A stretch of 32,000 nt of DNA from Candidatus Methanoperedens sp. (GTDB lineage: Archaea; Halobacteriota; Methanosarcinia; Methanosarcinales; Methanoperedenaceae), in assembly GCA_027460535.1 (NCBI GenBank), contig JAPZAR010000027.1, positions 150,001-182,000 on the forward strand, in the 5' to 3' direction. A program made the position numbers and the translations under genes. Under the pieces are notes generated by a model that saw only the letters and a list, made by a program, of their open reading frames with translations, ran no database searches and was not told the origin of the DNA. Of the stretch, positions 2,613-25,510 are shown piece by piece. Position 1 is the first letter of the stretch. Every line of letters starts with the position of its first letter.

Positions 2613-5006
2613 ATGGGTAAATATATCGAGGTTCAAGCATCGAATCTCATAGAAGAAAATAAGGAAGAGCTGGCGTACGCGTTGAAAGAGGCGCGCCAGT
2701 CTCTCGAAAGCCAGGGGAGAAACAGGGCGGCAAGAGATATCCAGACCATCCAGAAAACGCTTGGAGGCTATTCTGTCTCCGTAATACCCAAAGTCAGGAC
2801 AACGGACGGACACCTGATGGACTGGGACAGGAACACCATAATCAAACAGCTTTTGAAAGAAACAAAGCTGAGCGAGCAGTTCCACGGAAAAGCATCCATC
2901 ACAGAAGAGGAAGCCAGGGAAATAGCGAAGGAAACTGAGAAACGAATAAAAGATATGGGCGTAAAATTCCTGTCAGGCCCGCTTGTGCGTGAACTGGTCA
3001 ATATAATACTTCTTGAACGCGGTCACACTGAATGGCGGAATATCTCAACGAGGGTTGGCACACCGGTTTACGATGCCTATAAGATAGACATGGGCACGGG
3101 TTTTGAGAAAAACGATAATGCCAACCTGCAGGAGAACGCCGAAACCTCCCATAAAAAGAAAGCGGATAAGATGAGCAAAGAGCAGTACCTTCTCATGGTG
3201 CCGCCGAAACTTGCGGATGCGCATCTTAACGGCGATATTCACATCCACGACCTGGAATACCTCGGAACACGCGCCTTCTGCCAGGACTGGGACCTTCGAT
3301 ACTTCTTCTACTACGGTCTCATGCCCGATGGCAGCGGAACAAAAGCAAGCGTGGCTGGACCCGCTAAAAAAGCCGAGGTTGCCATACTGCATGCAGTGAA
3401 GGCTCTTGGCAGCGCGCAGACAAATTTCGCGGGCGGCCAGGGATTCTATAATTTCCTCACTTTCATTGCACCTTATTTTGAGGGCATGACCTACGGCGAG
3501 ATAGAGCAGCTCATGCAGATGTTCGTTTATGAAATGACACAGATGATGGTGGCCCGGGGCGGACAGCTGGTCTTTTCCTCCGTCCAGCTCTCCCCCGGCG
3601 TCCCCGGATTGTGGCGCGACAAACCTGTGGTTTACAAAGGGAAGGTCTTTGACGGCAAGCAGGCACCTCTGCGCACATACGGCGAGTTCGAGCGCGAGGT
3701 GCGCCTGAGCTTTGAGGCATTGATGAACGTGATGCTGAAAGGAGATTACTGGGGGAAACCCTTCAACTTCCCCAAACCCGAGATAAGCATAGAACCCGAC
3801 TTCATGGTCGAGGACGAGGAATACAACCGCATGCATCCAGAGCTTCTGAGCTACGACGAACTCTATACCAAGGCGTTCGAGCTTGCTGCCAAGTACGGAG
3901 CGCCGTATTTTGATAACCAGCTGCCCGAGTACCGCGGCGCTGGGAAGGGCATAAGCTGCTACCAGTGCTGCGCCTATAACTTCTCTTCTTCCAGCGAAAA
4001 GGACTCGGAGTTCGAGGACAAGCTGTATTTCAGGGACGGAAAGCATTTCTCGATGGGCGCCTGGCAGGTCGTTTCGGTTAACTGCCCGCGCGCTGCTTAC
4101 AAGGCGCAGAAGGACGATGATGCGCTCTTCGGGGAGCTCAAGAATCTGATGGACCTGAGCATTGAACTCTTCAAGGTGAAGCGAAAGTGGATGGACATCA
4201 TAATCAAGAACAACAGGATGCCCTTTGCCACGCAGAGACCCAAGGACCCGATAACCATGGGCAAGGGCGAGATCGCCGTGGATATGAAGGGGCTCGTGTA
4301 CACCATAGGCGTTGTCGGGATCAACGAGATGGTGCAGTACCATACGGGCAAGCAGATCTATGAGAGCGATGATGCGCGCCGACTCGCCATCAGGGCGATG
4401 TTCGAGATGAAGTTTTACGCGAAGGAACTCTCACAGAAGCACGGTATGGAGATAGCCCTCGCAAGAACACCTGCCGAGACAACAGCGCAGCGCTTTGCAG
4501 TGTCGGATCTGCTGCACAAGGAATACAGGAAATGCGCAGAGCCCATAATCAAAGGCAACGTACCCGAGGCCCTGGCACGCATACATGAGACGCGCGACCT
4601 CCCGGTGTATTACACCAACGGTACGCACGTGCCCCCGGGCGCCGATGTGTCGCTCCCCCAGCGCATCAAGCTTGAGGAGACCTTCTTCCCCATAGTGGAC
4701 GGGGGCAACATACTGCACATCTGGTTAGGAGAAGCTGCGCCAGACCCCCACGGGCTCAAGGAGTTCGCCATGAACATAGCCAAGAACACGCAGGTGGGTT
4801 ATTTTGCATTCACGAAGGACATGACGGTGTGCATGGATGATTTCCATGTTGCTTCCGGTTTGTTGGAGGAATGCCCCAATTGCGAGAGTGAGAATGTGGA
4901 GCATCTTAGTCGTGTTACTGGGTATATACAGGCTGTTTCTGGATGGAATGAGGGAAAGAAGCAGGAGCTGAAGGACAGGAAGAGATACGGGGTGGGAGGG
5001 ATGTGA
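2613..5006 (+). CDS. nrdD: Anaerobic (class III) ribonucleoside-triphosphate reductase
   Basis: 797 aa. It has an N-terminal ATP-cone-like segment and a large glycyl-radical enzyme barrel. The C-terminus has a Zn-ribbon plus glycyl radical motif (CPNCESENVEHLSRVTGYIQAVSGWNEGK). A GGAGGA RBS lies upstream. Confidence 0.95.
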   Translation: MGKYIEVQASNLIEENKEELAYALKEARQSLESQGRNRAARDIQTIQKTLGGYSVSVIPKVRTTDGHLMDWDRNTIIKQLLKETKLSEQFHGKASITEEEAREIAKETEKRIKDMGVKFLSGPLVRELVNIILLERGHTEWRNISTRVGTPVYDAYKIDMGTGFEKNDNANLQENAETSHKKKADKMSKEQYLLMVPPKLADAHLNGDIHIHDLEYLGTRAFCQDWDLRYFFYYGLMPDGSGTKASVAGPAKKAEVAILHAVKALGSAQTNFAGGQGFYNFLTFIAPYFEGMTYGEIEQLMQMFVYEMTQMMVARGGQLVFSSVQLSPGVPGLWRDKPVVYKGKVFDGKQAPLRTYGEFEREVRLSFEALMNVMLKGDYWGKPFNFPKPEISIEPDFMVEDEEYNRMHPELLSYDELYTKAFELAAKYGAPYFDNQLPEYRGAGKGISCYQCCAYNFSSSSEKDSEFEDKLYFRDGKHFSMGAWQVVSVNCPRAAYKAQKDDDALFGELKNLMDLSIELFKVKRKWMDIIIKNNRMPFATQRPKDPITMGKGEIAVDMKGLVYTIGVVGINEMVQYHTGKQIYESDDARRLAIRAMFEMKFYAKELSQKHGMEIALARTPAETTAQRFAVSDLLHKEYRKCAEPIIKGNVPEALARIHETRDLPVYYTNGTHVPPGADVSLPQRIKLEETFFPIVDGGNILHIWLGEAAPDPHGLKEFAMNIAKNTQVGYFAFTKDMTVCMDDFHVASGLLEECPNCESENVEHLSRVTGYIQAVSGWNEGKKQELKDRKRYGVGGM

Positions 5007-5210: not shown

Positions 5211-5609
5211 ATGAATATCCGCCGACATAGAGCCATCCGGTTAGTTTCGGTTTTTATTCTTCTTAGTCTGTACGGTTTTACTCTACTGACTACAAGAAGT
5301 ATAGGTAGTGCCCCACCGTCCACACCTGTTGTAACACAGTCAGGTTCTTCTCCGTCCTATACAGATCTAACAACCCAAGTCAATAATTTGCAGAGCCTGA
5401 CAGATTATTACAAAAATCAGACGCAGTATTATCAAAATCTATATGAAAATGAATCACCGAACACCTCCAATAAAAATGTTAACGAAATTCGAGATAACAT
5501 AGTCACAATAAATCAAAATATTCTTCAGGTTAATCAGAATATAGAAGCTATTCAAAATAATATATTTAACTCTAATCAGTTCCTTTATACGAACTTAAGA
5601 TATACATAG
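5211..5609 (+). CDS. Hypothetical membrane-anchored/secreted Asn/Gln-rich coiled-coil protein
   Basis: N-terminal hydrophobic segment (LVSVFILLSLYGFTLLT), followed by N/Q-rich heptad-like sequence. A GGAGAGG RBS lies upstream. The gene is AT-rich. No recognisable family. Confidence 0.45.
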   Translation: MNIRRHRAIRLVSVFILLSLYGFTLLTTRSIGSAPPSTPVVTQSGSSPSYTDLTTQVNNLQSLTDYYKNQTQYYQNLYENESPNTSNKNVNEIRDNIVTINQNILQVNQNIEAIQNNIFNSNQFLYTNLRYT

Positions 5610-5627
5610 AAAGAAAGAATAAAAAGA

Positions 5628-6596
5628 ATGAAAAATGAAAAAATTCAAGAGCAAGTTGTCATAAAATTTTTAAAGGTTTTCAAATATGCTTTATTGTTTT
5701 CGCTCTCAATATACCTGATTACATCTGCTTGGGTTCCCACTTTCTTTGATCTTATTTATGGCGAAGAAGTTATTAATCATGCTATGGCAAGATACATAGC
5801 GAATACTACCGACCCAGATAAGAAAGCTTTAGCAATAATGGGATGGGAAAAACAATACTTTTACAATCCATATTCACTCTATAATCCAAACTCTACCGCG
5901 CAGAAATTTGGAATCTTCAATGTAAATGGAGATTATAGATTGTTTGGAGCTCGACCGGCTCCCGTTTCTTGGATAATCTACTCGAGATTGGCAAACTGTG
6001 AAGAATATGCACGAGTTTTTGTTACTATGATGAACAAAGCGGGTATAGAATCAAGGTTAATCACTGCACCTGGAGAAGATCATGCTTGGGCCGAATACAT
6101 GCACGATGGTTACAGAATCGCTGTAGATCCTTCCCAAAACTATGTAATCGGAAGTCATAAAAGAGAATTTGAAAAGATTATGAGTGTGAAATTCTCGTAC
6201 CTAGAGGCGATAGATCCGCAAGGCAACAAAATAGATGCGTCCGATGAATATATCAAAAGAGGCAATTTAACTATTGTTGTTCTTGATAATGGGAAGCCAG
6301 TTAGCAACGCACAAGTTATGATTCAGAATCCATATTTGATGGAAAGTAGAAGTGACAGATATAAAAAACCAATTCCAGTGCTCCTAAAATCAACGGGAAA
6401 TGAGGGAACTGCTTCTTTTAAACTTGGATATCAAAAATACAATGTAACTGTGAGAGTAAATCACATATACTTACTAGATTCAGTGTACCAAAAAAATGTT
6501 ACAGTTAAAAATGATAAAGAAAATGTATTGGATTTTAATTTGGAAGATGATGAAAAAAATAATGAGTTATTTATATCAAGGATATATGAAAGTTAA
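5628..6596 (+). CDS. Transglutaminase-like (Cys-His-Asp) domain protein with N-terminal TM segment
   Basis: LANCEEYARVFVTMMNKAGIESRLITAPGEDHAWAEYMHDGYRIAVDPS matches the transglutaminase-core pattern (C..[FY]A ... G[IV]..R ... HAW.E ... D). An N-terminal TM helix and a C-terminal beta-rich region are also present. Confidence 0.65.
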   Translation: MKNEKIQEQVVIKFLKVFKYALLFSLSIYLITSAWVPTFFDLIYGEEVINHAMARYIANTTDPDKKALAIMGWEKQYFYNPYSLYNPNSTAQKFGIFNVNGDYRLFGARPAPVSWIIYSRLANCEEYARVFVTMMNKAGIESRLITAPGEDHAWAEYMHDGYRIAVDPSQNYVIGSHKREFEKIMSVKFSYLEAIDPQGNKIDASDEYIKRGNLTIVVLDNGKPVSNAQVMIQNPYLMESRSDRYKKPIPVLLKSTGNEGTASFKLGYQKYNVTVRVNHIYLLDSVYQKNVTVKNDKENVLDFNLEDDEKNNELFISRIYES

Positions 6597-6689
6597 TATT
6601 TTTATGGATAGTAAAATTCATGCCATTTTACCAGAAGCGTCGGACATTAATCTCCATATATTTATAAATAACTGGTGCAACCTTGTTCC

Positions 6690-6866
6690 TGCGCCGACAG
6701 CGAGCCTGCCCCGCGCAGGTCATGTGCAGACCCGGCACAATAAATCTGCGTTCATCCACGGTTCGTTTTTTGTGGAAGCTCCGGCACACCATCGTTGCGC
6801 AAACTTGCTATATGCGCACATTCCGAAATTCGTTGTCTTTGCGACCTTTGCGTTCTCTGCGATGAG
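6690..6866. repeat. Compact copy of the GC-rich intergenic repeat family (see 12821..13420)
   Basis: tgcagacccggcacaataaatctgcgttcatcc (6725-6757) matches tacagacccggcacaacaaatctgcgttcatcc (12883-12913). The segment acggttcgttttttgtggaagc matches gcggttcgttttttgcggaagc. The 3 x 9-bp run gtctttgcg/acctttgcg/ttctctgcg (6835-6861) matches 13074-13100. Confidence 0.7.
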
Positions 6867-7193
6867 AAGATTAACTCCGCAATGCACACCAGGAGAGCAA
6901 AATATTCATAGACTAAACAAAGCGACAGAGATGACAAAAATGACAACACCGCCGGCGAGCGGCAGGATCAAAGTACATCCGCTGATTACAATATTTCATC
7001 CGCACTGTGAATACTTTCACATCCCTCTCCAAGAATATAATAACAAGCTAACATAGACATATGCAAAATAACCCATAATCATGCCCTCAGATACACCCCT
7101 CAGTACATTCATCAAATCGAAATATGGCTCGCTATTTGAGGAGTGTCTCAGCGCGGTTCACCGGCTCATAGTTGTTATGGAGGCAAAGAACTG

Positions 7194-8507
7194 ATGGCAA
7201 AACACATGCATGAAATCCGCGATCCACTGCACGTTTTCATTCGCCTCGATTCGGATGAGAGGAAGGTACTTAATTCTCGTCCATTCCAGCGCCTCCGATA
7301 TATTCATCAGCTTGGTTTAACGTATCTTCTATATCCAGGGGCAACCCATAGAAGGTTTGAACACTCGCTGGGTGTTATGGAATTGGCTGGACGGGTCTAT
7401 GATACTGTAACTGAGCCATCCAATATATTCCATGAATCCGTTAGAAGTGTCGTACCTGCACACAATTCATATGAACATACATATTGGCGCCGGGTTCTTC
7501 GCATGGCGGCTCTATGTCATGATATCGGGCACTTGCCGTTTTCCCATACAGCCGAAGAATATCTGCTTCCTGATGGTTGGGATCATGAACGTCTCACTTT
7601 AGAGATTATCAGAAGCGAGGAACTGGAATCTATTTGGAAGGAGATCAAGATACAATCAGATGATGTTGCAAAACTTGCCGTAGGTCCCAAGAAATATAAG
7701 GATTCTTCTTTCACGGATTGGGAGGCAATTCTTTCTGAAATAATCGTGGGCGATGCTTTTGGGGTTGACCGAATGGACTACTTGATACGAGATTCTCACC
7801 ATGTGGGAGTAGCTTACGGAAAGTTCGATCATTACCGACTTATTGATACTATGCGTATTCTACCCAAAGAAGAGGATGGTTCTGCAGAACCCGCCCTTGG
7901 CATAGAAGAAGGCGGTTTGCACTCAGCGGAAGCACTGGTACTGGCAAGATACTTTATGTATACACAACTATACTACCATCATGTCAGGCGGATCTATGAT
8001 ATTCATTTGAGAGACTTCCTCAAGAAATGGTTCCCCAACGGATACTTACCCATCGAGATCGAGGAACATCTACGGATGACAGACAACGAAATATCAGTAG
8101 AGTTATTTAAGGCAGCCAGAGACGAAAAACATCCAGGACATGATCCAGCGCGACGTATAATTAATCGAGAGCATTTCAGATTGTTATATCAGAGGAACCC
8201 TAATGATATCGTAAAAAATCCCGAAGCTGGCAAATTAATCTTCGACGAGGCATGCAAAAAGTTCGGTGAGGCAAATGTGAGATATGATACCTACAAGCAA
8301 AAGGGTAGTGGTCTTAACTTTCCCGTACTGCTCTCTATAGATGGCCGCATATCATCATCCCTGGCAATGTCGGAGGTATTAAAGACTGTTCCCATCGTCG
8401 CAGTAGATTATGTCTTTATCAATCCTGATTATCGAAAAGAGGCTGAAAAATGGTTAAAAGAAAAGCGTGAAGCTATAATTACAAAGAAGGAGGGCGAAAA
8501 AATATGA
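7194..8507 (+). CDS. SAMHD1/EF1143-type HD-domain phosphohydrolase (putative dNTP triphosphohydrolase, COG1078-like)
   Basis: Motifs RFEHSLGV, CHDIGHLPFSH and DRMDYLIRDSHHVGV line up with the H...HD...D metal site of SAMHD1-like dNTPases. The ATG at 7194 has a GGAGG box 8 nt upstream. The ORF track starts at the GTG at 7143. Confidence 0.8.
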   Translation: MAKHMHEIRDPLHVFIRLDSDERKVLNSRPFQRLRYIHQLGLTYLLYPGATHRRFEHSLGVMELAGRVYDTVTEPSNIFHESVRSVVPAHNSYEHTYWRRVLRMAALCHDIGHLPFSHTAEEYLLPDGWDHERLTLEIIRSEELESIWKEIKIQSDDVAKLAVGPKKYKDSSFTDWEAILSEIIVGDAFGVDRMDYLIRDSHHVGVAYGKFDHYRLIDTMRILPKEEDGSAEPALGIEEGGLHSAEALVLARYFMYTQLYYHHVRRIYDIHLRDFLKKWFPNGYLPIEIEEHLRMTDNEISVELFKAARDEKHPGHDPARRIINREHFRLLYQRNPNDIVKNPEAGKLIFDEACKKFGEANVRYDTYKQKGSGLNFPVLLSIDGRISSSLAMSEVLKTVPIVAVDYVFINPDYRKEAEKWLKEKREAIITKKEGEKI

Positions 8508-9046
8508 AAAGATTACAGCGTGATGCTGTTATATTATCGTTAATAGAAAATCTCAGGGCAAAAGGAAGCTGGTGCGGAGAAACCCACATTCAAAAGGCAA
8601 CATATTTCATTCAGGAACTGCTTAGGGTTCCTCTAGAATTTGATTTTGTTCTGTATAAACACGGTCCGTATTCATTTGATCTGAGCGATGAGCTAACAGC
8701 CATGCGGGCAGATGCGATCCTCAAGTTACAACCCCAACCACCACCTTATGGCCCCAGCTTTATTCATAGCATTGGTAGCAAATTAATAAAAAAGCGTTAT
8801 CCAAAAACTTTGAAAAAGTACAATCCAATGGTGAAATTCGTTGCAAATAAACTTGGAGATAAAGGTGTTACAGAGCTTGAACGTTTAGCTACAGCGCTTT
8901 ATGTGACTCGTGAAATAAATACGGACAATAGTATTGAATCCAGGGCACAATGTATCCATAAGCTCAAACCTCATGTTTCTCTGGATGAAGCACGTGATGC
9001 TGTCAGGGTAGTTGATACGTTCATTGAAGAATCGAGTGACGTATAA
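8504..9046 (+). CDS. Panacea/DUF4065 (SocA/GepA)-like small protein, translationally coupled to the HD gene
   Basis: Its start overlaps the HD gene stop (ATGA, 4-bp overlap). The segment THIQKATYFIQELLRVPLEFDFVLYKHGPYSFDLSDEL resembles the DUF4065 core pattern (KLQKLLYfaQ ... F.aWkyGPv...). The assignment is from memory of the family consensus, not from an HMM run. Confidence 0.45.
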   Translation: MKRLQRDAVILSLIENLRAKGSWCGETHIQKATYFIQELLRVPLEFDFVLYKHGPYSFDLSDELTAMRADAILKLQPQPPPYGPSFIHSIGSKLIKKRYPKTLKKYNPMVKFVANKLGDKGVTELERLATALYVTREINTDNSIESRAQCIHKLKPHVSLDEARDAVRVVDTFIEESSDV

Positions 9047-9083: not shown

Positions 9084-9179
9084 TCACAACTCCCCCTTAA
9101 ACGCCCTGTCCAGCACAGCCGGCAGCAGCGCATCCAGTTCGGCGCCGGTTTCTTCCTGGAGGCGCCTGAGCGCGTCCAT
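9084..9179 (-). pseudogene. Orphan 31-codon remnant resembling the conserved C-terminal helix of type I R-M specificity (HsdS) subunits; also the left end of a repeat copy
   Basis: The minus strand reads MDALRRLQEETGAELDALLPAVLDRAFKGEL*. A second copy of the tail (..LPAVLDRAFKREL*) ends at 12821. The shared DNA is ctccc..aacgc.ct.tccagcacagccggcagc. The HsdS resemblance (..LLPsILdkAFkGEL C-termini) is from memory. Confidence 0.3.
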
Positions 9180-9233
9180 CTTGTTTGCAGTGCATCGAAG
9201 TATTCGATGATAATAGGAACCACTTATCTATAA

Positions 9234-10157
9234 TTAAAGATGGTTTCCTATATGAGCAACCAAGATTTTGCCCTTATCTATGTTAGGCTTTCCCTCATGA
9301 AAATAAATTCTATTATAATAAAAATGCGTGTCACCTGTTGAGTCGCTTTTACTAAGTTTGAGGTGTGGTTCACAACAAACCTGAACTGGGTTTGAATTAT
9401 CATCAGTAAATACAAAAGTCAACGCTGGCTTCTTGTCTGCATTACCCTCAAGTGAGGCATCAACATTGCACTCAGAGGAAAATCGTCTTAGAGTTTCAAC
9501 AAGATCGTATTTATTGCGATATGATTTGAATTTATCATTAAGTTGAGCTAGATTATAAATTATCGAACCAGCGAACCTTTCCAAACCCCCTTCTAATCTC
9601 CCAAGTGAGATTTCTACATGAGGATGAAAGTTTATCTGTGTAAAATATTTTCTTGCTTCATTATAGAAGTTCAGTTCATCTATAGGATTTTTTGCCAAAA
9701 AATACCTATGAAATTTATACCATTGTTCTTTTGTTTTAATGATAACCGTGGAATCGATTTCATGTTCATCAAGATTAATTGAATGCAAGATAAGTAAACC
9801 ATTTAAATTACTTCCGCTATTTGATTTTACGAGATCAACTACTTCTTGTTCATTCAAGTTACGCGTATTTGCACGATCAAGAAGAATCATAAAAGTCTTT
9901 TTTATATCGTGGGGAATGTTAATGGATATTTCAGGAGTAAATAAAAAATTAGAAATTGTATAATTTTGGTAAATCTCAAGATAATATATACTATCATTTT
10001 TGTATATACAATCTTCATTTATCTTGAATTTGGAATTATGTTCTTTTATGTATTTTATTGTGTTATTAAGTTCTTTAATTTGAGTAATCAAATTATCTAG
10101 AGTGATACCGTCTTTATAAGTAAAAGATGAGTTGAATAAAAATAAATCAGCCCTCAT
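9234..10157 (-). CDS. Hypothetical protein, third gene of the DUF262-ATPase operon
   Basis: 307 aa and very AT-rich. Its start overlaps the ATPase stop (ATGA). No family recognised. The C-terminal motif CEPHLKL...RIYFHEG...GKILVAHIGNHL looks like a conserved functional core. Confidence 0.6.
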   Translation of the reverse strand: MRADLFLFNSSFTYKDGITLDNLITQIKELNNTIKYIKEHNSKFKINEDCIYKNDSIYYLEIYQNYTISNFLFTPEISINIPHDIKKTFMILLDRANTRNLNEQEVVDLVKSNSGSNLNGLLILHSINLDEHEIDSTVIIKTKEQWYKFHRYFLAKNPIDELNFYNEARKYFTQINFHPHVEISLGRLEGGLERFAGSIIYNLAQLNDKFKSYRNKYDLVETLRRFSSECNVDASLEGNADKKPALTFVFTDDNSNPVQVCCEPHLKLSKSDSTGDTHFYYNRIYFHEGKPNIDKGKILVAHIGNHL

Positions 10158-11293
10158 TTCCTTCTACCTTCAAATATATCTGCCAAATCTTTTTCTTCTT
10201 GATCAAAGAATCCATAAGGCCAATTCGACAATTCAGCATTCTCATCCAAAGTAATATGTTGAATATTTGGGTTTTTGGATTTTTTATCAAGGCTAAAAAA
10301 GTTTATGGAAACTAAATCATTTGAAATTAATTTTTTTAAGGTAGCTATTCGTATTCCATTAATCACATGTTCGCTATGTGTTTCTACTATTACCTGAACA
10401 CCCGATGAAGCTATCTGCGCTAAAAACTGACCGATCCTGGATTGACCGCTTGGATGCAGGTGTGCCTCCGGATTTTCTACAATTAAAAGGCACCCCTCCT
10501 CAGCGATTAATCCGCTTACTATAATTGGGAGAACATATGAAATGCCAAAGCCTACATTGTTGGGATTTAAAGGTTTAGTATCTGAATAAGTTCTTCGTAA
10601 ATAATAACCCACCATGTTAATTTGTTGATATAGAGTAGTATTGATTTCGATACCCGGAATAATGTAATTTAGCCAATATTCAACCTGTTTATTTAGGTTA
10701 GGGACTGTTAATTCAACGTCATCAAATCTTCTTTTCTCATTAATTTTATATTCATTATTTTTTTCTATGGTATACCCTGTATACTCTCCTTGAAATCCAG
10801 TATTTGAAAATTTTTGATTGACGATATCTTGTCTGACTCTTGGTCCCAAGCGCTCTGCATTAAGATAATGAAACTCATTCTGATAAATTGATACTGCTTC
10901 ATTTCGATCGACAACTATTCCAACCCTTTGAAATTTTAACACTAATTCTGGACTTTTTTTTGACATTGAATATTTAAATGAGGCTCTTGATGGAGTTTTA
11001 TCATTTATGATAAAAGTTATATCTTCTGAGGTTGCATTTGAAGAAAGTACTTGTGAGGTATCTCCTAAATTCAGAAAATATTCATGATTCAATTGAATGT
11101 CAATTTCAGGGTAATCCTTTAGGTATTTATATTCTGACATTAATTTATCAATCGTTTGCCTAACAATTAGAAGTGCTTGTATCAATGACGATTTTCCCAC
11201 AGCATTTGATCCAGCTAGTATAGTTAGCCTATTTAGATTGATTGATGAGTCTAAGAAGCACTTAAAATTGTTTATAGTTATATTTTTAATCAT
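10154..11293 (-). CDS. ABC/OLD-like P-loop ATPase (AAA_15/AAA_21-like, possible DUF3696-type C-terminus)
   Basis: N-terminus MIKNITINNFKCF. Walker A is GSNAVGKSS. Walker B/D-loop is LLIVENPEAHLHPSGQ. The H-loop is VIVETHSEHV. The C-terminal WPYGFFDQ tail is also present. It overlaps the upstream DUF262 gene by 8 bp. Confidence 0.8.
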   Translation of the reverse strand: MIKNITINNFKCFLDSSINLNRLTILAGSNAVGKSSLIQALLIVRQTIDKLMSEYKYLKDYPEIDIQLNHEYFLNLGDTSQVLSSNATSEDITFIINDKTPSRASFKYSMSKKSPELVLKFQRVGIVVDRNEAVSIYQNEFHYLNAERLGPRVRQDIVNQKFSNTGFQGEYTGYTIEKNNEYKINEKRRFDDVELTVPNLNKQVEYWLNYIIPGIEINTTLYQQINMVGYYLRRTYSDTKPLNPNNVGFGISYVLPIIVSGLIAEEGCLLIVENPEAHLHPSGQSRIGQFLAQIASSGVQVIVETHSEHVINGIRIATLKKLISNDLVSINFFSLDKKSKNPNIQHITLDENAELSNWPYGFFDQEEKDLADIFEGRRK

Positions 11294-12704
11294 AACTAAC
11301 CTTCAAATTATCATCGATAATTTTTTTTACAATACTAAAGGTCAAATCAATTTTTTTCCGATCGTTTGTACCGACAGTAATAGCATCATTGAAACTTTGA
11401 TTAGAGTCCAATTGTATAGCAAATGGTTGTATAAGGCATCCTTGATTATTCTTTTTTGTAATTTCATTAAAATCATAATTATATAATAATATCGATAGAG
11501 TTGTAAATAATGACTTATTGATTAATTGTTTTCGCGCTTCAGGTTTAAGATGTTCGGATTTACATTTTCTAAAAGAGTAGTCTCCAAAAAGGTAGTAAGT
11601 AATATTCATTGCATTTAAGAACGCACTTTTTATTCCGTTTAATGTTAATTCACTTTCTCCTTTATTCAACAATTCTAGAGTATCATCGAGAAATTGGTCC
11701 ATATCTCCTTTATATTTTAGATTTTCATTTCCTAGTTCCTTAAGATAATAAAATCCAATGAATCTCATTACTAGTTCTTGATCTGCCATCCTAATCTTAC
11801 TAATACTTTCACCAGTAGTTTTCAAAAATTCCTTAGAATTGGAGAGATCTTTCAACATATTTCTCACGCGATAATTAGCCAAACAGTTACGAACTTCTTG
11901 ATTGTTCAGCGGTTTACCACCTGTATTGATACGTTTGAAGATTTCAAATTTGACTTTTGGAGGTGTCTGAGGGTCAATTATATTGAAAATTAATTGTGTT
12001 TGTTTTATTCTTCTAAGATATTTTGGATCCAAGCTTTTTGCCCCTTCTTTCTCAAAAAAACACCCGCTACAATCTTCTAAATATTCCAAATTTTTTAATT
12101 TAAATTCATTATTTAAATAATCTTTAATTACTGTAAGTCTTTGTACGCCATCAACCACCTGCAACATTCCTTTTTGATCCTGTGATAAATAAAATACAGG
12201 GAGCGGAATTCTTAATAAAATTGATTCAATTAACCTAGATTTTCTAGTAATATCAGTCCAAACAAAGTTCCTTTGAAAATCAGGAGATAAATCTAAATCT
12301 TTTTGTCTGCCTGTCATCATTTCAAAAACATAACTTATAGACATTGATTTAGTTTCAACCCTGATCAATTCTGGATCATAAGGCTGCGGTTCTTGATCGA
12401 CATCTGCCTCTTCTAACGTATCTTCAATCCCTGCAATTTCACTCTCTAATTTATTTTCTGCAATTGCAATTAAATTTCGCCGAAATTCTTCCTTTAATTC
12501 GTTATGAGAACTCGCTATTTTGTCTCCTTTTTTGATTGAATTAATTTGATTGTTTTTGTCAAGCTTGATGGATATTCTGTATTCATCATCGCTAAATCCT
12601 TCAACAAAGCCAGTCCATAATGTTTCATCAATGCTGCTCTTTTCTAATATCGCTTCTAATTTATTTTCTGAATCCGTTAGTTGAATATTTAGTTTCATGA
12701 TCAA
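11286..12704 (-). CDS. DUF262 (ParB-like nuclease/NTPase superfamily, GmrSD N-domain type) protein with ~130-aa N-terminal extension
   Basis: DLSPDFQRNFVWTDITRKSRLIESILLRIPLPVFYL....VVDGVQRLTVI matches the DUF262 pattern, including the DGQQR-type motif. No DUF1524/His-Me finger is visible. The start may be the ATG at 12698 rather than the TTG at 12704. Confidence 0.8.
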   Translation of the reverse strand: MIMKLNIQLTDSENKLEAILEKSSIDETLWTGFVEGFSDDEYRISIKLDKNNQINSIKKGDKIASSHNELKEEFRRNLIAIAENKLESEIAGIEDTLEEADVDQEPQPYDPELIRVETKSMSISYVFEMMTGRQKDLDLSPDFQRNFVWTDITRKSRLIESILLRIPLPVFYLSQDQKGMLQVVDGVQRLTVIKDYLNNEFKLKNLEYLEDCSGCFFEKEGAKSLDPKYLRRIKQTQLIFNIIDPQTPPKVKFEIFKRINTGGKPLNNQEVRNCLANYRVRNMLKDLSNSKEFLKTTGESISKIRMADQELVMRFIGFYYLKELGNENLKYKGDMDQFLDDTLELLNKGESELTLNGIKSAFLNAMNITYYLFGDYSFRKCKSEHLKPEARKQLINKSLFTTLSILLYNYDFNEITKKNNQGCLIQPFAIQLDSNQSFNDAITVGTNDRKKIDLTFSIVKKIIDDNLKVSYD

Positions 12705-12820: not shown

Positions 12821-13420
12821 TTATAACTCCCTCTTGAACGCTCTATCCAGCACAGCCGGCAGCGAGCCCGTTCTACACCGGTACAGACCCGGCACAACAA
12901 ATCTGCGTTCATCCGCGTCATGCCCGGCAATATCTACAGCAATATCCACGTATTGCGAAGCAATACGTGTGTGCGCCCTCCAGAGGCGCGACTCTGGGCG
13001 CCTTCATCTGCGGTTCGTTTTTTGCGGAAGCGCCGCAGATTAATAAATTAGTCAATATAAAATTAATCCATCAATCTTTGCGATCTTTGCGTTCTTTGCG
13101 GTGATGTCCATGCTAACTTCCTGCGCCCCTCTCTCACCAAACCCCAGCCCCCTCCGCGCGCCTCCACTGGCGCAGCCGGCAGCGAGGCCGTGTTGCTCCT
13201 TTACAGACCCGGCACAACAAATCTGCGTTGTGTGACACGTATGGCGAAGCCATACGTGAATGCACCGCTCCGAAACCCTGCGGGTTCTCGACTCAGCATA
13301 CGCATATGGCAACGCCATATGCGGATACGCCCTCCCGAGGCGTGACTCGGGAGGCTCGCGACTCTGGGCGCCTTCATCTGCGGTTCGTTTTTCGCTAAAG
13401 CGCCGGACTTTAATTGTTCA
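12821..13420. repeat. Two tandem, diverged units of a GC-rich structured intergenic repeat family
   Basis: Unit 1 spans about 12821-13170 and unit 2 about 13170-13420. Shared blocks are cagccggcagcgag[c/g]ccg, tacagacccggcacaacaaatctgcgtt (12883 / 13202) and gcgactctgggcgccttcatctgcggttcgttttt (12988 / 13358). The units contain several perfect hairpins. Related copies lie at 6690-6866 and 9084-9130. Confidence 0.8.
13074..13100. repeat. 3 x 9-bp tandem repeat (atctttgcg atctttgcg ttctttgcg) inside the repeat unit
   Basis: Read directly from the sequence. A homologous triplet lies at 6835-6861. Confidence 0.8.
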
Positions 13421-21844: not shown

Positions 21845-23119
21845 TCATTCAGCCTTTCCCGTCATCTCCTCCAGCAATTCCTTCGCCCTGTCAGCCCTGA
21901 CCTTTCTTTCCTTCACCATTATCTCAGCTATCTTATCAACCAGATCCCCGGTAGCCCCTGCCTGTATCGCCACGTTCCTTGAATGAAGCCCCATATGCCC
22001 CCTCTGGATTCCTTCAGTTGCGAGCGCGCGCATGGCTGCGAAATTCTGGGCTAGGCCAAGCGCCGCGAATACCTCGCCCATTTCCGTGGCAGTCTTGACG
22101 TTGAGTATCTTTACTGCAGCCCTCGCTATCGGATTGGTCTTCGTGGCGCCTCCCACAAGACCCACTGCAATCGGCATCTCTATCGTGCCAACGAGGTCGC
22201 CCTCCTCATTTTTCTCGTAGGCTGAAAGCGGCCTGTAAATTCCGCTGCGCGATGCATAGACGTGTGCCCCGGCCTCGATTGCGCGTGTGTCGTTGCCCGT
22301 GGCAAGGACTGCAGCGCTCACGCCATTCATTATACCTTTGTTATGCGTGGCTGCACGATACGGGTCGCCTGCCGCAAAATGATACGCTGCAAGGATGCCA
22401 TCAACGACCTCTTCGCCACCTATGGCTTCTCTCGTGAACACTGCTTTTGCCCGCATTATTCTTTTGTCAGCAAAATTCGAGATTATCCGAAGATACACGC
22501 GCCCTCCAGTCAGCTCCTCCAGATAAGGCGCCACTGTTTCAGCCATTGTATTTACGGCATTGGCGCCCATGGCATCACGGCAATCCACTATCAGATGGGT
22601 GATAACCATCTTCCCACCCGGTGTATCGATAACCCTTACTTCCACATCTTTTGCGCCGCCGCCGAACTTCACGAGCACTGGGTCCACCTCGTTCGCGCGC
22701 CTTATTATCTCATCCTTTTTCTCAAGTATCCTCATCCTTGCACCGTTGGGGTCGGCGATTTCCACGGCCTGTATCTGTCCGATCATCACAGGGCCCGTAC
22801 TGCTCGTGGTGAACCCTCCACACTCGCGCGCCATCTTGGCGGCGTTGCTGGCAGCGGCTATCACCGAAGGTTCTTCGATCGCCATTGGAATGAGGTAATC
22901 CTTCCCATTGATCAGGAAATTGACAGCCACGCCCATGGGCACTTCCATGACGCCGATGAGGTTTTCAACCATGCGGTCAGCCGCATCCAGTGAAAGGGCG
23001 CCTGTGGCGCTGATGCATGATGATTCCTCGCCTGTGAGTTCTGCAAATTCTGATACGAGCTTGAGTCTTTCCTTTGGGCTTAGCTTATAGAAACCTGAAA
23101 TTTTGGAAGTTTTGGTCAT
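21845..23119 (-). CDS. hmgA: Hydroxymethylglutaryl-CoA reductase, class II type
   Basis: 424 aa. ENLIGVMEVPMGVAVNFLINGKDYLIPMAIEEPSVIAAASNAAK, DAMGANAVNTM, VGLVGGATKTNP and TEGIQRGHMGLHSRN match class II (P. mevalonii / A. fulgidus type) HMGR blocks. Confidence 0.92.
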   Translation of the reverse strand: MTKTSKISGFYKLSPKERLKLVSEFAELTGEESSCISATGALSLDAADRMVENLIGVMEVPMGVAVNFLINGKDYLIPMAIEEPSVIAAASNAAKMARECGGFTTSSTGPVMIGQIQAVEIADPNGARMRILEKKDEIIRRANEVDPVLVKFGGGAKDVEVRVIDTPGGKMVITHLIVDCRDAMGANAVNTMAETVAPYLEELTGGRVYLRIISNFADKRIMRAKAVFTREAIGGEEVVDGILAAYHFAAGDPYRAATHNKGIMNGVSAAVLATGNDTRAIEAGAHVYASRSGIYRPLSAYEKNEEGDLVGTIEMPIAVGLVGGATKTNPIARAAVKILNVKTATEMGEVFAALGLAQNFAAMRALATEGIQRGHMGLHSRNVAIQAGATGDLVDKIAEIMVKERKVRADRAKELLEEMTGKAE

Positions 23120-23327
23120 AATACCCTCAAATGGAATTAAAACATCGGAGATGTATAAATAGATTTTCGGCTGGTGATCTTATCATTTGGTCAGTCAAAG
23201 GCGGGCCAAAGATGAACAACGGTGAGAGCAGATTCGTTAATAGTGGCATTCCGATTACTCGACATGCAGTTTTCGAGTTTCGAAATGTATATATTGAGAG
23301 AACATTATTAGAAGAAAGCCCTCTCAT

Positions 23328-23401
23328 GGGCTGGTAGCTTAGACAGGCAGAGCGTCGGACTCTTAATCCGACGGCCGTGGGTTCAAATCCCTCCCAGCCC
23401 G
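23328..23401 (+). tRNA. tRNA-Lys (anticodon CUU)
   Basis: Hand-folded cloverleaf of 74 nt. The acceptor is GGGCTGG/CCAGCCC, the D-arm GCTT..GAGC, and the anticodon arm TCGGA-CTCTTAA-TCCGA (CTT). It has a 5-nt variable loop and a T-arm GTGGG-TTCAAAT-CCCTC with one U-U mismatch. The discriminator is G and no CCA is encoded. Confidence 0.85.
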
Positions 23402-23677
23402 CTGATTTTTACGAAAAATCAACTAAGATGAGTATCGATACTCCTATATCCAAATGGAAGTATTACAAAATAAATGAGGACGCAGTTTTTGTATTAAAAG
23501 GCTCCAATAAGTTCTGGTCACAATTGTTTGTTTCTTCAGCACAATGGTTCATGAACATTTTCTAATTTGTTCATCTAAAATCTCATCTCTCTATTTTCGT
23601 TCCATCGACAGCTTAATATATGATAATAAAATAACATTAAGCTGTTAATTATTTTAACAATCACGGAGTGGTGTGAT

Positions 23678-24103
23678 ATGAAAGAAGAAAAATTGAAAAA
23701 TGATGAATCAATATCTGAACAACTTGAGAATAATAAGGACATAGAAGAAGCCAAAGCTATGTTGAAAGAATTAAAGATGGATGAATTAAATAAATACGAA
23801 GATGTTTTAAAAACTGTTCGCAATATTTTTCCCAATCTTGATAAAATTCTTACTCCGTTTGAAATAATTGATGCACTCGGATTAGTTGATATTGCTAAGG
23901 AAGGTTGTCAAGCGTGTCAACATTGCCAATTATGCCAAAATTGTAATACATGCCAGACATGTAATTCGTGCAACACTTGTCAGTTACAAGCACATGGAAT
24001 TTTTGAAGGAGTTCCTAGGCCTGCAGATTATTTAGCCAGGCTTCAATTAATTCAAATATTAAAAGTTCTTAGCAAGCATATTCCAATTGATAGGGAGAGT
24101 TAA
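23678..24103 (+). CDS. Cys-triplet-repeat peptide (candidate RiPP precursor)
   Basis: 141 aa. Residues 77-102 are CQACQHCQLCQNCNTCQTCNSCNTCQ, giving nine Cys at exact i+3 spacing, each followed by Gln or Asn. It has a charged helical N-terminal region of about 75 aa. A GGAGTGGTG RBS lies upstream, with a TATA-like ttaatatatgataataaaa at about 23614. Confidence 0.7.
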   Translation: MKEEKLKNDESISEQLENNKDIEEAKAMLKELKMDELNKYEDVLKTVRNIFPNLDKILTPFEIIDALGLVDIAKEGCQACQHCQLCQNCNTCQTCNSCNTCQLQAHGIFEGVPRPADYLARLQLIQILKVLSKHIPIDRES

Positions 24104-25247
24104 ATGCGTGTATATAGAATCCCTCAGTCTTGGTTTAACTAATAATTGCAATTTAAATTGTTCTTATTGCTTTGAAGGTAAAAAGAACAAATTGACTATG
24201 TCGGTTGATACTGCAAAGAAATCAATCGATTGGCTATTTCGGAATGATGTTTCAGGGCCTGTCAGTAAGGTAGATATTTCCTTTTTTGGAGGAGAACCTC
24301 TACTCGAAATGAACACAATTAAGGAGATAATTATATATGCTCGTGAAAAAGCTGAATTAATCGGAAAAGAAGCCAACTTTTCAGCGACAACAAATGGTGT
24401 TCTTTTTGATAAAGAAATTGCAGAATACTGGATTGAAAATAACCTTGGGATACTTTTGAGCTGTGATGGAATAAAAAAAGCTCATGATATCAGCAGAAAG
24501 TCTCAGTCAGGAGAGGGATCTTTTGATCTTGTTGAAAAGAACTTTGATAATGTACTTTCATTAAACAAGGGAAAAGAGGTTAGGATGACATATACTCCTC
24601 ATACATGTAAATATATAGCTGATGGAGTGCAATATTTGAGCAATTGCGGTTTTGAAAGTATTTCCGTTTTTCCTTCCGAAGAAATGAAATGGACTGATCA
24701 AGACTTACTTGCCTGCGAAGAAAGTTTTTACAAAACAGGTGAATTCTTGGTAAATGCTCTTGAAAAGAATATTACTTTAATTATAAATCCTATCTCAAAT
24801 CGATTAAAATCATTATTAAATGAAGATACCAAAGTTTTGAATAATGAAATGTGTGGAGCAGGACGAACCTACGTAGGAATTGGCGTTGATGGAACCATAT
24901 ACCCATGCCACAGATTTGCATCTCATAATAATTTTTCTGGAGCATATCCTATAGGTAACATAATTAACGGTCTTGACGAGATAAAACGGATCCCCTTCCT
25001 AAGAATGAAAAAAAACCTACTGCTGGGTTGTGACATTGAATGTGATATATGTAGTCTTCATGGTAATTGCACTGGTGGCTGTATGGCTGCTAATTATGAT
25101 GTAACAGGTCATTTAACTCTAAGACCAAGGTCATTAAGATTTCATGAAATGATTTGGGATAATGTAGCGAAATCAATGATCGATTACTTTAAAGAAAATA
25201 ACTATGAATCTTTTCGAGAAAAAATTCTTGGATCTAAGGGAATGTAA
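24087..25247 (+). CDS. Radical SAM enzyme with C-terminal SPASM domain (anSME/peptide-maturase family)
   Basis: CNLNCSYC (Cx3Cx2C) near the N-terminus. SPASM signature CGAGRTYVGIGVDGTIYPC ... CDICSLHGNCTGGC (Cx2Cx5Cx3C). An alternative GTG start at 24108 lies 4 nt after the peptide stop and is preceded by GGGAGAG. Confidence 0.88.
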   Translation: MIGRVKCVYIESLSLGLTNNCNLNCSYCFEGKKNKLTMSVDTAKKSIDWLFRNDVSGPVSKVDISFFGGEPLLEMNTIKEIIIYAREKAELIGKEANFSATTNGVLFDKEIAEYWIENNLGILLSCDGIKKAHDISRKSQSGEGSFDLVEKNFDNVLSLNKGKEVRMTYTPHTCKYIADGVQYLSNCGFESISVFPSEEMKWTDQDLLACEESFYKTGEFLVNALEKNITLIINPISNRLKSLLNEDTKVLNNEMCGAGRTYVGIGVDGTIYPCHRFASHNNFSGAYPIGNIINGLDEIKRIPFLRMKKNLLLGCDIECDICSLHGNCTGGCMAANYDVTGHLTLRPRSLRFHEMIWDNVAKSMIDYFKENNYESFREKILGSKGM

Positions 25248-25510
25248 CGAATTTGCTGAAACTTCTATAATGTGAAACAAATATTATAGGAGTTGAGGGG
25301 ACGTGACGAAATATTCACAAAAGAGCAAACAAGAACATGGTTGAGGGAAAACAATCTGAAGGACGGAAAAAGCATTGTTTTAACAATTGCAACCTGCCTG
25401 TGGTCCACTATTCGTTGAATTGTTCTATTTCCTTATTTCCATATTATTAGTAAATTATGCTGTATTTAATTAAAACGGTTTTTTTTGGGCTCAGCCAGCA
25501 CTTCATCTCA

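Follow-up and report, generated by a model that had tools for sequence, protein, structure and literature searches.

The 32,000-nucleotide (nt) stretch of DNA analysed here, referred to below as the window, comes from Candidatus Methanoperedens sp. (contig JAPZAR010000027.1 of GenBank assembly GCA_027460535.1, positions 150,001–182,000, forward strand). At positions 7194–9046 it carries a gene for an HD-domain protein homologous to SAMHD1 and EF1143, followed by a gene for a 180-amino-acid (aa) protein homologous to the toxin-binding C-terminal domain of DarG. We propose that the two genes form a mobile, toxin–antitoxin-like and probably antiviral module, in which the DarG-like protein would restrain a deoxynucleoside triphosphate (dNTP) triphosphohydrolase (dNTPase), and we put the probability of this reading at about one half. 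The toxicity of the HD enzyme, its binding by the partner and the role in defence are predictions from homology, linkage and genomic context. The preliminary description of the window, made from its letters and open reading frames (ORFs), had suggested that a protein of the Panacea (DUF4065) family gates a toxic dNTPase. That interpretation is partly supported: the pairing, the accessory nature of the pair and the antitoxin-type fold of the partner hold, and formal membership of the partner in the Panacea family fails. The elements of the pair are the following.

7194–8507, + strand: HD-domain protein of 437 aa, homologue of the SAMHD1/EF1143/Aq_1910-type (d)NTP triphosphohydrolases (COG1078 type), proposed effector or 'toxin', from the ORF, PF01966 and PF19276 matches and PDB sequence matches
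8504–9046, + strand: 180-aa 'YwgA-like' protein, stand-alone homologue of the DarG toxin-binding C-terminal domain with a remote Panacea link, proposed 'antitoxin', from the ORF, the structural model, Foldseek and hidden Markov models (HMMs)
8504–8507, + strand: ATGA stop/start overlap with translational coupling, the HD stop codon TGA (8505–8507) overlapping the partner start codon ATG (8504–8506)
7179–7183, + strand: GGAGG Shine–Dalgarno-like motif 10 nt 5′ of the HD ATG, read directly, function putative
8489–8493, + strand: GGAGG Shine–Dalgarno-like motif 10 nt 5′ of the partner ATG and within the 3′ end of the HD gene, read directly, function putative

The HD and partner genes form an obligate pair

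The HD and partner genes are an obligate pair and are translationally coupled. The overlap of the HD stop codon with the start of the 180-aa ORF, already pointed out in the preliminary description, is read directly from the sequence. An alternative GTG start of the HD ORF lies at position 7143, and the ATG at 7194 is favoured because the N-termini of homologues read MxKxxHEIRDP. Conservation of the pairing, for which a neighbourhood survey had been suggested, was apparent from both sides. Close relatives of the partner are encoded in only 533 stretches from the genomes of 185,579 species, and in the best 80 of these 533 matching stretches, which made up the partner-selected sample, 74 loci have sequence homologous to the HD gene immediately 5′ of the partner, on the same strand. 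The HD-selected sample consisted of 80 metagenome loci encoding HD proteins of at least 57% identity, 75 of which extend 300 nt or more beyond the HD gene; the partner lies downstream of the HD gene in all 75, and no HD gene without a partner was found among them. The gaps between the two genes in the metagenome loci are 0–104 nt and mostly under 30 nt. The distance matrix of the HD proteins correlates with that of the partners (r = 0.78, n = 111), with a mean pairwise identity of 60% for the HD protein and 49% for the partner.

The linkage is asymmetric. An intact partner whose HD gene has been lost or has decayed was observed in eight loci: only the last 41 HD codons are left in L002 and only ∼35 nt of the HD gene in L003, the HD gene is internally deleted in L054, and it is absent in L034, L055, L063, L070 and L079. 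Such a one-way orphan pattern would be expected if the HD protein were harmful without its partner. The pair has the features of a toxin–antitoxin-like system, namely two adjacent and co-oriented genes, an ATGA overlap, conserved linkage and a partner that persists alone.

Four individual loci are described here in their own right. In L003, a gene for a 395-aa P-loop ATPase (AAA_22/KAP/STAND-like; 6711–7898) stands in the place of the HD gene, and in L079 (7502–9787) the orphan partner is flanked on one side by an HmaA-like helicase, of which the C-terminal part is present, and on the other by a PRTase-CE protein. The chromosome of Methanosarcina vacuolata, a complete genome (L169, 2112–5348), encodes a 434-aa HD protein and a 185-aa partner separated by a 13-nt gap; this pair is located between amino-acid permease and methyltransferase genes, with genes for a 1,078-aa CHAT-TPR protein and a ResIII helicase nearby. 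A plasmid search with the partner returned one weak match, a relative of 26% identity on plasmid pMETHO01 of Methanomethylovorans hollandica (L081, 5998–6543), located directly after a family-B DNA polymerase gene, which suggests that the partner fold also pairs with proteins other than HD hydrolases.

The HD protein retains the SAMHD1-type active site

The HD protein matched two Pfam families above their curated cut-offs, PF01966 (HD) with 37.9 bits (cut-off 22), the check that had been proposed for it, and PF19276 (HD_assoc_2) with 54.3 bits (cut-off 23.1). In a single-sequence search of the PDB, its nearest solved relatives were Aquifex Aq_1910 (2HEK, E = 2e-55), Enterococcus faecalis EF1143 (2O6I, 5e-31) and SAMHD1 (1e-24), and a profile of the HD family gave 5e-72 for 2HEK, 8e-41 for EF1143 and 1e-32 for SAMHD1. 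The preliminary description had assigned the protein to the SAMHD1/EF1143 type from the motifs RFEHSLGV, HDIGHLPFSH and DRMDYLIRDSHHVG, all of which are found in it, and this identity, with an intact active site, is borne out by the PDB sequence matches and by residue conservation. The motifs R-x-x-H, HD..H....H, W.HE, D[KR].DY...D and R...Y.H align with those of 2HEK, EF1143 and SAMHD1 and are invariant across 25 homologues that are 65–93% identical to the window protein. The four metal ligands (H...HD...D) and the catalytic and substrate residues of SAMHD1 are conserved in the window protein, the equivalent positions being R54, H57, H109–D110, H113, H118, H131, D192, R193 (a K to R replacement), Y196, D200, R252, Y260 and H262, and the whole set is invariant in the same 25 homologues. 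The SAMHD1 residues used for this comparison are R164, H210, H215, H233, K312, Y315, D319, R366, Y374 and H376. Judged from these matches and residues, the HD protein very probably has (d)NTP triphosphohydrolase activity.

Membership of the Dgt-type, anti-phage dGTPases was rejected. Scores against the Dgt-type dGTPase models were 35.8 bits for TIGR01353 (cut-off 152.35) and 18 bits for NF041026 (cut-off 400), and the match to the PADLOC model of anti-phage dGTPases was confined to residues 19–124, i.e. the N-terminal ∼100 residues of the HD protein, the same part to which the NCBIfam matches were limited.

The partner resembles the toxin-binding domain of DarG

The assignment of the partner as a DarG C-terminal-domain-like protein is solid. 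The AlphaFold2 model of the 180-aa protein, which has a predicted local distance difference test score (pLDDT) of 94.4 and a predicted template modelling score (pTM) of 0.90, resembles a winged helix in its N-terminal half and is helical in its C-terminal half. When the model was compared with the PDB using Foldseek, one significant fold was found, that of chains B and D of 7YK3 (E = 1e-4, probability 1.0, template modelling scores of 0.70/0.67), which are the DarG C-terminal domain in complex with DarT. The next match had an E-value of 0.47, and the weaker matches were to MarR and PadR regulators. Sequence comparisons agreed with the structural match: the PADLOC DarG HMM aligned residues 6–159 of the protein with HMM positions 164–311 of 329 (E = 7.9e-10), the NCBIfam DarG model gave an E-value of 9e-9 with 35 bits, under its equivalog cut-off of 250, and a profile of 130 partner sequences searched against PDB sequences ranked 7yk3_B best (E = 0.0059), in an alignment that superimposes the invariant motifs QK..YF and GP[FY]S. 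The near-invariant H-G-P-[FY]-S of the partner family, which also has an invariant WCGETH.QK motif, aligns with Y-G-P-Y-S of DarG, this being an alignment to DarG and not to PF13274 itself. In Panacea proteins, a conserved G-P-V-type signature motif matters for neutralisation (PMC8832971).

The relation to Panacea itself is more remote. The core GETHIQKATYFIQ...FVLYKHGPYSFDL, which the preliminary description had likened to the DUF4065 consensus, is present in the 180-aa protein; it amounts to a resemblance, as the protein had no Pfam match at E ≤ 0.1 and, in the proposed HMMER check against PF13274, none at E ≤ 1. When 130 members of the partner family were scanned against Pfam, 8 matched PF13274 (SocA_Panacea) at E ≤ 1, with a best E-value of 0.0025, which is below the gathering threshold; PF13274 was nevertheless the sole Pfam family matched more than twice among them. 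Ten longer or more distant relatives had no match to it, and formal PF13274 membership was rejected for the window protein. DUF4065 proteins have been reported to be homologous to the DarG C-terminal domain with a 'marginally significant' E-value of 1e-3 (PMC13621843, 2026). This published homology and the 8 sub-threshold matches make it probable that the partner is a remote member of the Panacea superfamily. A search for a solved Panacea structure found none.

Comparison of the 180-aa protein with Pfam revealed no macrodomain, no nucleotidyltransferase and no other enzyme domain. The partner family is not acidic (median net charge −1, and +4 for the window protein). It is a large and well-conserved family of stand-alone proteins of ∼180 aa, with 3,775 clusters at 90% identity in a word-indexed search and 2,013 clusters at 50% identity in an exhaustive search. 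Close homologues of the two proteins carry the JGI labels 'uncharacterized protein YwgA' (partner) and 'HD superfamily phosphohydrolase' (HD protein).

The pair is found in defence loci of archaea and bacteria

The accessory nature of the pair, claimed in the preliminary description, and its association with defence are supported by its surroundings in relatives. In 17 of the 80 partner-selected genome loci, the pair is located between hmaA and hmaB, and the order at these loci is a ∼1,140-aa SNF2 helicase, the pair, a ∼980-aa DUF1156 methylase and a DUF499 ATPase, all co-oriented and tightly packed. PADLOC identified these neighbours as HmaA (9e-165), HmaB (1e-130) and HmaC (2e-128). HmaA and HmaB homologues also flank the pair in 18 of 80 loci of the independent metagenome sample, so that an Hma-embedded position accounts for about 21% of loci in both samples. 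According to Payne et al. (10.1101/2024.01.29.577857), who validated several of them, the genes found inside Hma are for the most part defence systems. PADLOC 2.0 contains no model for the HD–partner pair. Other immediate neighbours include AAA_15/AAA_21 ATPases of the HEC-01A, NsnB and mad3 types, the MADS protein mad8, DpdF and methylases of types I, II and III.

Relatives of the partner, 51–92% identical, are spread over Methanosarcinales, Methanothrix and Methanomicrobiales as well as over 10 bacterial phyla and more, a distribution that implies horizontal transfer. Cultured bacteria with the pair include Geobacter argillaceus ATCC BAA-1139 (L075), Desulfacinum infernum DSM 9756 (L051) and Desulfobulbus alkaliphilus DSM 24258 (L060). 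A phage search with the partner gave no match, and a partner homologue is carried by 7 of 2.9 million IMG/VR contigs. Two of these contigs, L083 (6001–6558) and L084 (4425–5006), encode solo partner homologues (47% identical) that are surrounded by virus-like genes and lack an accompanying HD gene; in addition, L084 encodes a YfbR-like HD 5′-deoxynucleotidase and a ClpB-like AAA protein. It is tempting to speculate that such solo viral homologues act as a counter-defence against the HD enzyme.

The pair lies in an accessory island downstream of nrdD

In the window, the gene order is ArgRS, nrdD, two low-GC genes, a repeat element, the HD gene and its partner, an HsdS fragment, a Menshen operon, further repeat copies and then an M42 peptidase gene and leu/ilv genes (GC, guanine-plus-cytosine content). 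The main features around the pair are the following.

2613–5006, + strand: gene assigned as anaerobic ribonucleotide reductase nrdD by reading its translation, conserved on the upstream side of the variable region in Methanoperedens-type relatives and anchoring it there, from DNA synteny with L001, L002, L003 and L006
6693–6865, no strand assigned: upstream copy of a repeated intergenic element (repeat families D1–D3) that recurs at 12850–13113 and 13170–13414, the copies bracketing the accessory stretch
9087–9227, − strand: C-terminal fragment of a type I restriction–modification specificity subunit (HsdS) right after the pair, 76% identical over 33 aa to the Methylase_S C-terminus
9234–12704, − strand: complete Menshen operon identified by PADLOC, consisting of NsnC (9234–10157), NsnB (10154–11293) and NsnA (11286–12704)

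The GC content of the HD and partner genes is 0.40–0.44, compared with 0.47–0.55 in the flanking core genes. The statement that the pair sits between repeat copies was roughly right: related units of 30–60 nt, at 6693–6865, 12825–13113 and 13170–13414, bracket the accessory stretch, and similar ones are present in L003, L004 and L005. The pair is indeed next to a DUF262 operon, as had also been noted, and this operon is a complete Menshen NsnABC system (PADLOC: NsnC 3e-76, NsnB 9e-111, NsnA 1e-115) with a GC content of ∼0.30, against 0.47–0.55 in core genes. A 39-nt direct repeat (D4; 9088–9126 and 12825–12863, 90% identical) brackets the Menshen operon and suggests that it is a recent cassette insertion.

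Among public loci, L001, from a Methanoperedenaceae genome, is the closest, with 89% DNA identity over the pair. In five Methanoperedens-type genomes (the window, L001, L002, L003 and L006), nrdD precedes the pair or what is left of it. A universally conserved housekeeping HD copy at a syntenic position had been named as an outcome that would refute the preliminary interpretation, and this partly applies: the site downstream of nrdD is shared by the five genomes, but in two of them the HD gene has been deleted and the partner kept. The L006 locus (Methanosarcinales) contains, in order, nrdD, an internally deleted HmaA remnant (6362–6691), the HD gene, the partner and an HmaB fragment (8549–8817), and is a decayed Hma system in which the embedded pair is still intact. 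The HmaA and HmaB remnants on either side of the pair in L006 make it probable that the copy next to nrdD was once embedded in an Hma system that later decayed. No Hma remnants were detectable in the window.

Two further low-GC stretches were noted in the window. Between nrdD and the pair (5211–6596, + strand) are two genes with a GC content of 0.34–0.36 that encode a 132-aa coiled-coil, Asn/Gln-rich protein and a 322-aa protein that combines a transglutaminase core with a CarboxypepD_reg-like domain. The second stretch (23000–25500, GC content 0.33–0.36) comprises a radical SAM/SPASM gene (24087–25247) and a 141-aa ORF, and may be another accessory insertion.

Proposed mechanism and alternative explanations

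In the proposed module, the HD enzyme would, when unrestrained, deplete dNTPs so that DNA synthesis stops. Translational coupling would cause the partner to be made together with the enzyme, and the partner would bind the enzyme directly and keep it off, by blocking catalysis, allosteric activation or oligomerisation. Infection may remove, override or out-compete the partner; the freed dNTPase would then hydrolyse dNTPs and halt viral, and possibly host, DNA synthesis. The module would move horizontally among archaea and bacteria and settle in defence loci, often inside Hma systems.

Several observations weigh against this proposal. About 60% of the loci have no recognisable defence neighbour, and some of the neighbours of the pair are housekeeping genes (KdpA, topoisomerase, UvrA and EngA). 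Synteny links the pair of the Methanoperedens-type genomes to a nucleotide-metabolism gene, nrdD. The partner bears the JGI name YwgA, and in Bacillus subtilis the neighbours ywfO and ywgA are regarded as ordinary chromosomal genes. Because the window protein matches neither PF13274 nor a viral structure labelled Panacea, transfer of function from Panacea proteins is indirect. The BFVD viral structure library contained no match to the partner model at E ≤ 0.001 and none labelled Panacea, the matches obtained being weak and partial and to uncharacterised Sulfolobus virus proteins. The antitoxin-type fold is supported by the 7YK3 and DarG HMM matches, and the link to Panacea is remote. Finally, the median net charge of −1 in the partner family does not support DarG-style mimicry of single-stranded DNA (ssDNA). 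The mechanism of inhibition would thus not be simply copied from DarG, because the partner family is not acidic and the DarG domain mimics ssDNA.

Some of these points are also what housekeeping control of dNTP pools would lead one to expect, with the HD protein as an ordinary dNTPase, the partner as its regulatory or assembly subunit, a functional link to the nrdD gene found upstream in all five Methanoperedens-type genomes and an incidental presence in defence loci. Variable regions collect many kinds of genes, so location in defence loci could be due to chance, and conservation is high in both proteins, as the mean pairwise identities show. In Firmicutes and in the minimal genome, HD proteins of the YwfO type count as housekeeping (PMC4993169), and PMC11071499 describes a cell-cycle role of a bacterial Dgt. 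However, a housekeeping function fits poorly with the loss of the HD gene and retention of the partner in two of five nrdD-linked genomes, with so few encoding stretches scattered over unrelated phyla of both domains, and with a GC content below that of core genes. It also fits poorly with the position between hmaA and hmaB in both samples, a slot that mostly holds defence or unknown genes as opposed to metabolic ones (10.1101/2024.01.29.577857), and in L006 the nrdD-adjacent copy itself lies between HmaA and HmaB remnants. We therefore regard this explanation as rather unlikely. A positive role of the partner, as a sensor, activator or targeting subunit that binds nucleic acid or a viral protein and switches on or directs the HD enzyme, whose substrate might in this case be nucleic acids or nucleotides other than dNTPs, is unlikely. 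It would account for the winged-helix-like half of the model and the weaker matches to MarR and PadR, for a partner that, unlike a DNA mimic, is not acidic, and for the distant relative that adjoins a family-B DNA polymerase gene on a plasmid; moreover, SocA, a Panacea protein, is a protease adaptor and not a plain inhibitor (PMC8832971). The partner is, however, seen without the HD protein and the HD protein never without the partner, a pattern to be expected of an inhibitor and odd for an activator, the loss of which would be harmless. In addition, the sole strong structural match is to an inhibitory toxin-binding domain, and the HD active site retains the full SAMHD1 dNTPase residue set.

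The toxin–antitoxin-like architecture and its asymmetry, together with the location of the pair in variable regions bracketed by repeats, are also in line with a plain addiction-type toxin–antitoxin cassette that has no immune role and stabilises the islands or mobile DNA that carry it, including Hma and Menshen cassettes, and many Panacea pairs are classical toxin–antitoxin systems (PMC8832971). Such a cassette is nonetheless improbable as the whole explanation. The searches yielded one weak plasmid match, no phage match and a handful of IMG/VR contigs (seven), and the specific location inside Hma, with hmaA on one side and hmaB on the other and not at the edges of cassettes, better fits embedded defence genes. 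Toxin–antitoxin and defence roles are, besides, compatible with each other.

Significance

Nucleotide depletion by SAMHD1-like enzymes is an established antiviral principle that animals and bacteria share. The way in which cells protect themselves from such enzymes is only beginning to be understood (Clover, 2025). If the proposed module is real, the pair would add a different solution to this problem, a protein lock borrowed from toxin–antitoxin systems; it would provide a function for the large, uncharacterised 'YwgA' family and widen the repertoire of the DarG C-terminal domain/Panacea fold to an HD hydrolase. It would also be a new candidate immune system in methane-cycling archaea (Methanoperedens, ANME-2 and Methanothrix), in which few defence systems have been tested. 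Independently of its function, the pair shows that Hma systems still contain embedded genes that had not been catalogued. A bolder version, which we put forward tentatively and consider possible rather than probable, is that HD–YwgA constitutes a widespread antiviral system of archaea and bacteria in which a SAMHD1-like dNTPase is locked, until infection, by a stand-alone protein of the DarG C-terminal domain/Panacea superfamily. If so, no earlier nucleotide-depletion effector would have been gated by a protein antitoxin, and some viruses would carry the solo lock (L083 and L084) as a counter-defence.

Comparison with known systems

The idea of an HD and Panacea pair is already contained in a supplementary table, without experiment or analysis. 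In cluster pT33/T34 in Dataset S1 of Kurata et al. (2022, PNAS), a Panacea/DUF4065 protein comes after an 'HD domain-containing protein' (CDD YdhJ), for example WP_115792120/WP_115792121; T34, predicted as a toxin|antitoxin pair in that order, comes from five Firmicutes genomes (Ammonifex, Desulfofundulus and Caldicellulosiruptor) and is marked 'notest'. As in the window, a COG1078-type HD gene comes first and a small antitoxin-type gene second on the same strand, with gaps of −4, 0, −17 and +23 nt in T34. The two differ in that the T34 partners, unlike the window partner, which has no PF13274 match, were retrieved in a search for DUF4065, the families being compared by description only. A functional study of YwgA, of YwfO, of DUF4065 together with a phosphohydrolase or of DarG together with a dNTPase was looked for in the literature and none was found.

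The HD protein shares its fold and its set of catalytic residues with SAMHD1, EF1143 and Aq_1910. These enzymes and the anti-phage dGTPases of Tal et al. (2022) differ from the pair in that they act alone and are regulated by allosteric nucleotides, and the window HD protein is not of the Dgt type to which the latter belong. Like the Hma-embedded candidates HEC-01 to HEC-09 and PDC (Payne et al. 2024, PADLOC 2.0), the pair occurs between hmaA and hmaB; however, neither protein matches any HEC model, and the partner matches the N-terminus of PDC-M19A weakly (E = 4.8e-7). The terms HD, dGTPase, DarG and Panacea were not found in the available parts of the text and supplements of the Payne et al. 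preprint, and the terms HD, dGTPase and DarG were not found in the archaeal-immunity survey.

The resemblance to DarTG lies in the partner, which has the fold of the DarT-binding C-terminal domain of DarG and matches its HMMs. In DarTG, the toxin gene comes first and the antitoxin gene second. The pair differs in having neither a macrodomain nor DarT, the upstream gene encoding an HD hydrolase instead. A further difference is that the partner family is not acidic, whereas the C-terminal domain of DarG is described as an ssDNA mimic in the title of a reference cited in PMC13621843.

Clover protects against phage with two genes, and its dNTPase CloA is toxic unless CloB, the product of the adjacent gene, restrains it (preprint of Yamaguchi et al. 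2025, PMC12265719). The pair resembles it in combining a dNTPase with a restraining adjacent gene, the restraint here being predicted. A Clover-type partner, i.e. a Pol-beta-type nucleotidyltransferase, was rejected for the window, as the 180-aa protein lacks such a domain and has the fold of the DarG C-terminal domain instead. The two systems would thus hold their enzymes in check by different means: CloB is a nucleotidyltransferase that makes the inhibitory nucleotide p3diT, whereas the 180-aa partner has no enzyme domain and resembles a protein-binding antitoxin domain.

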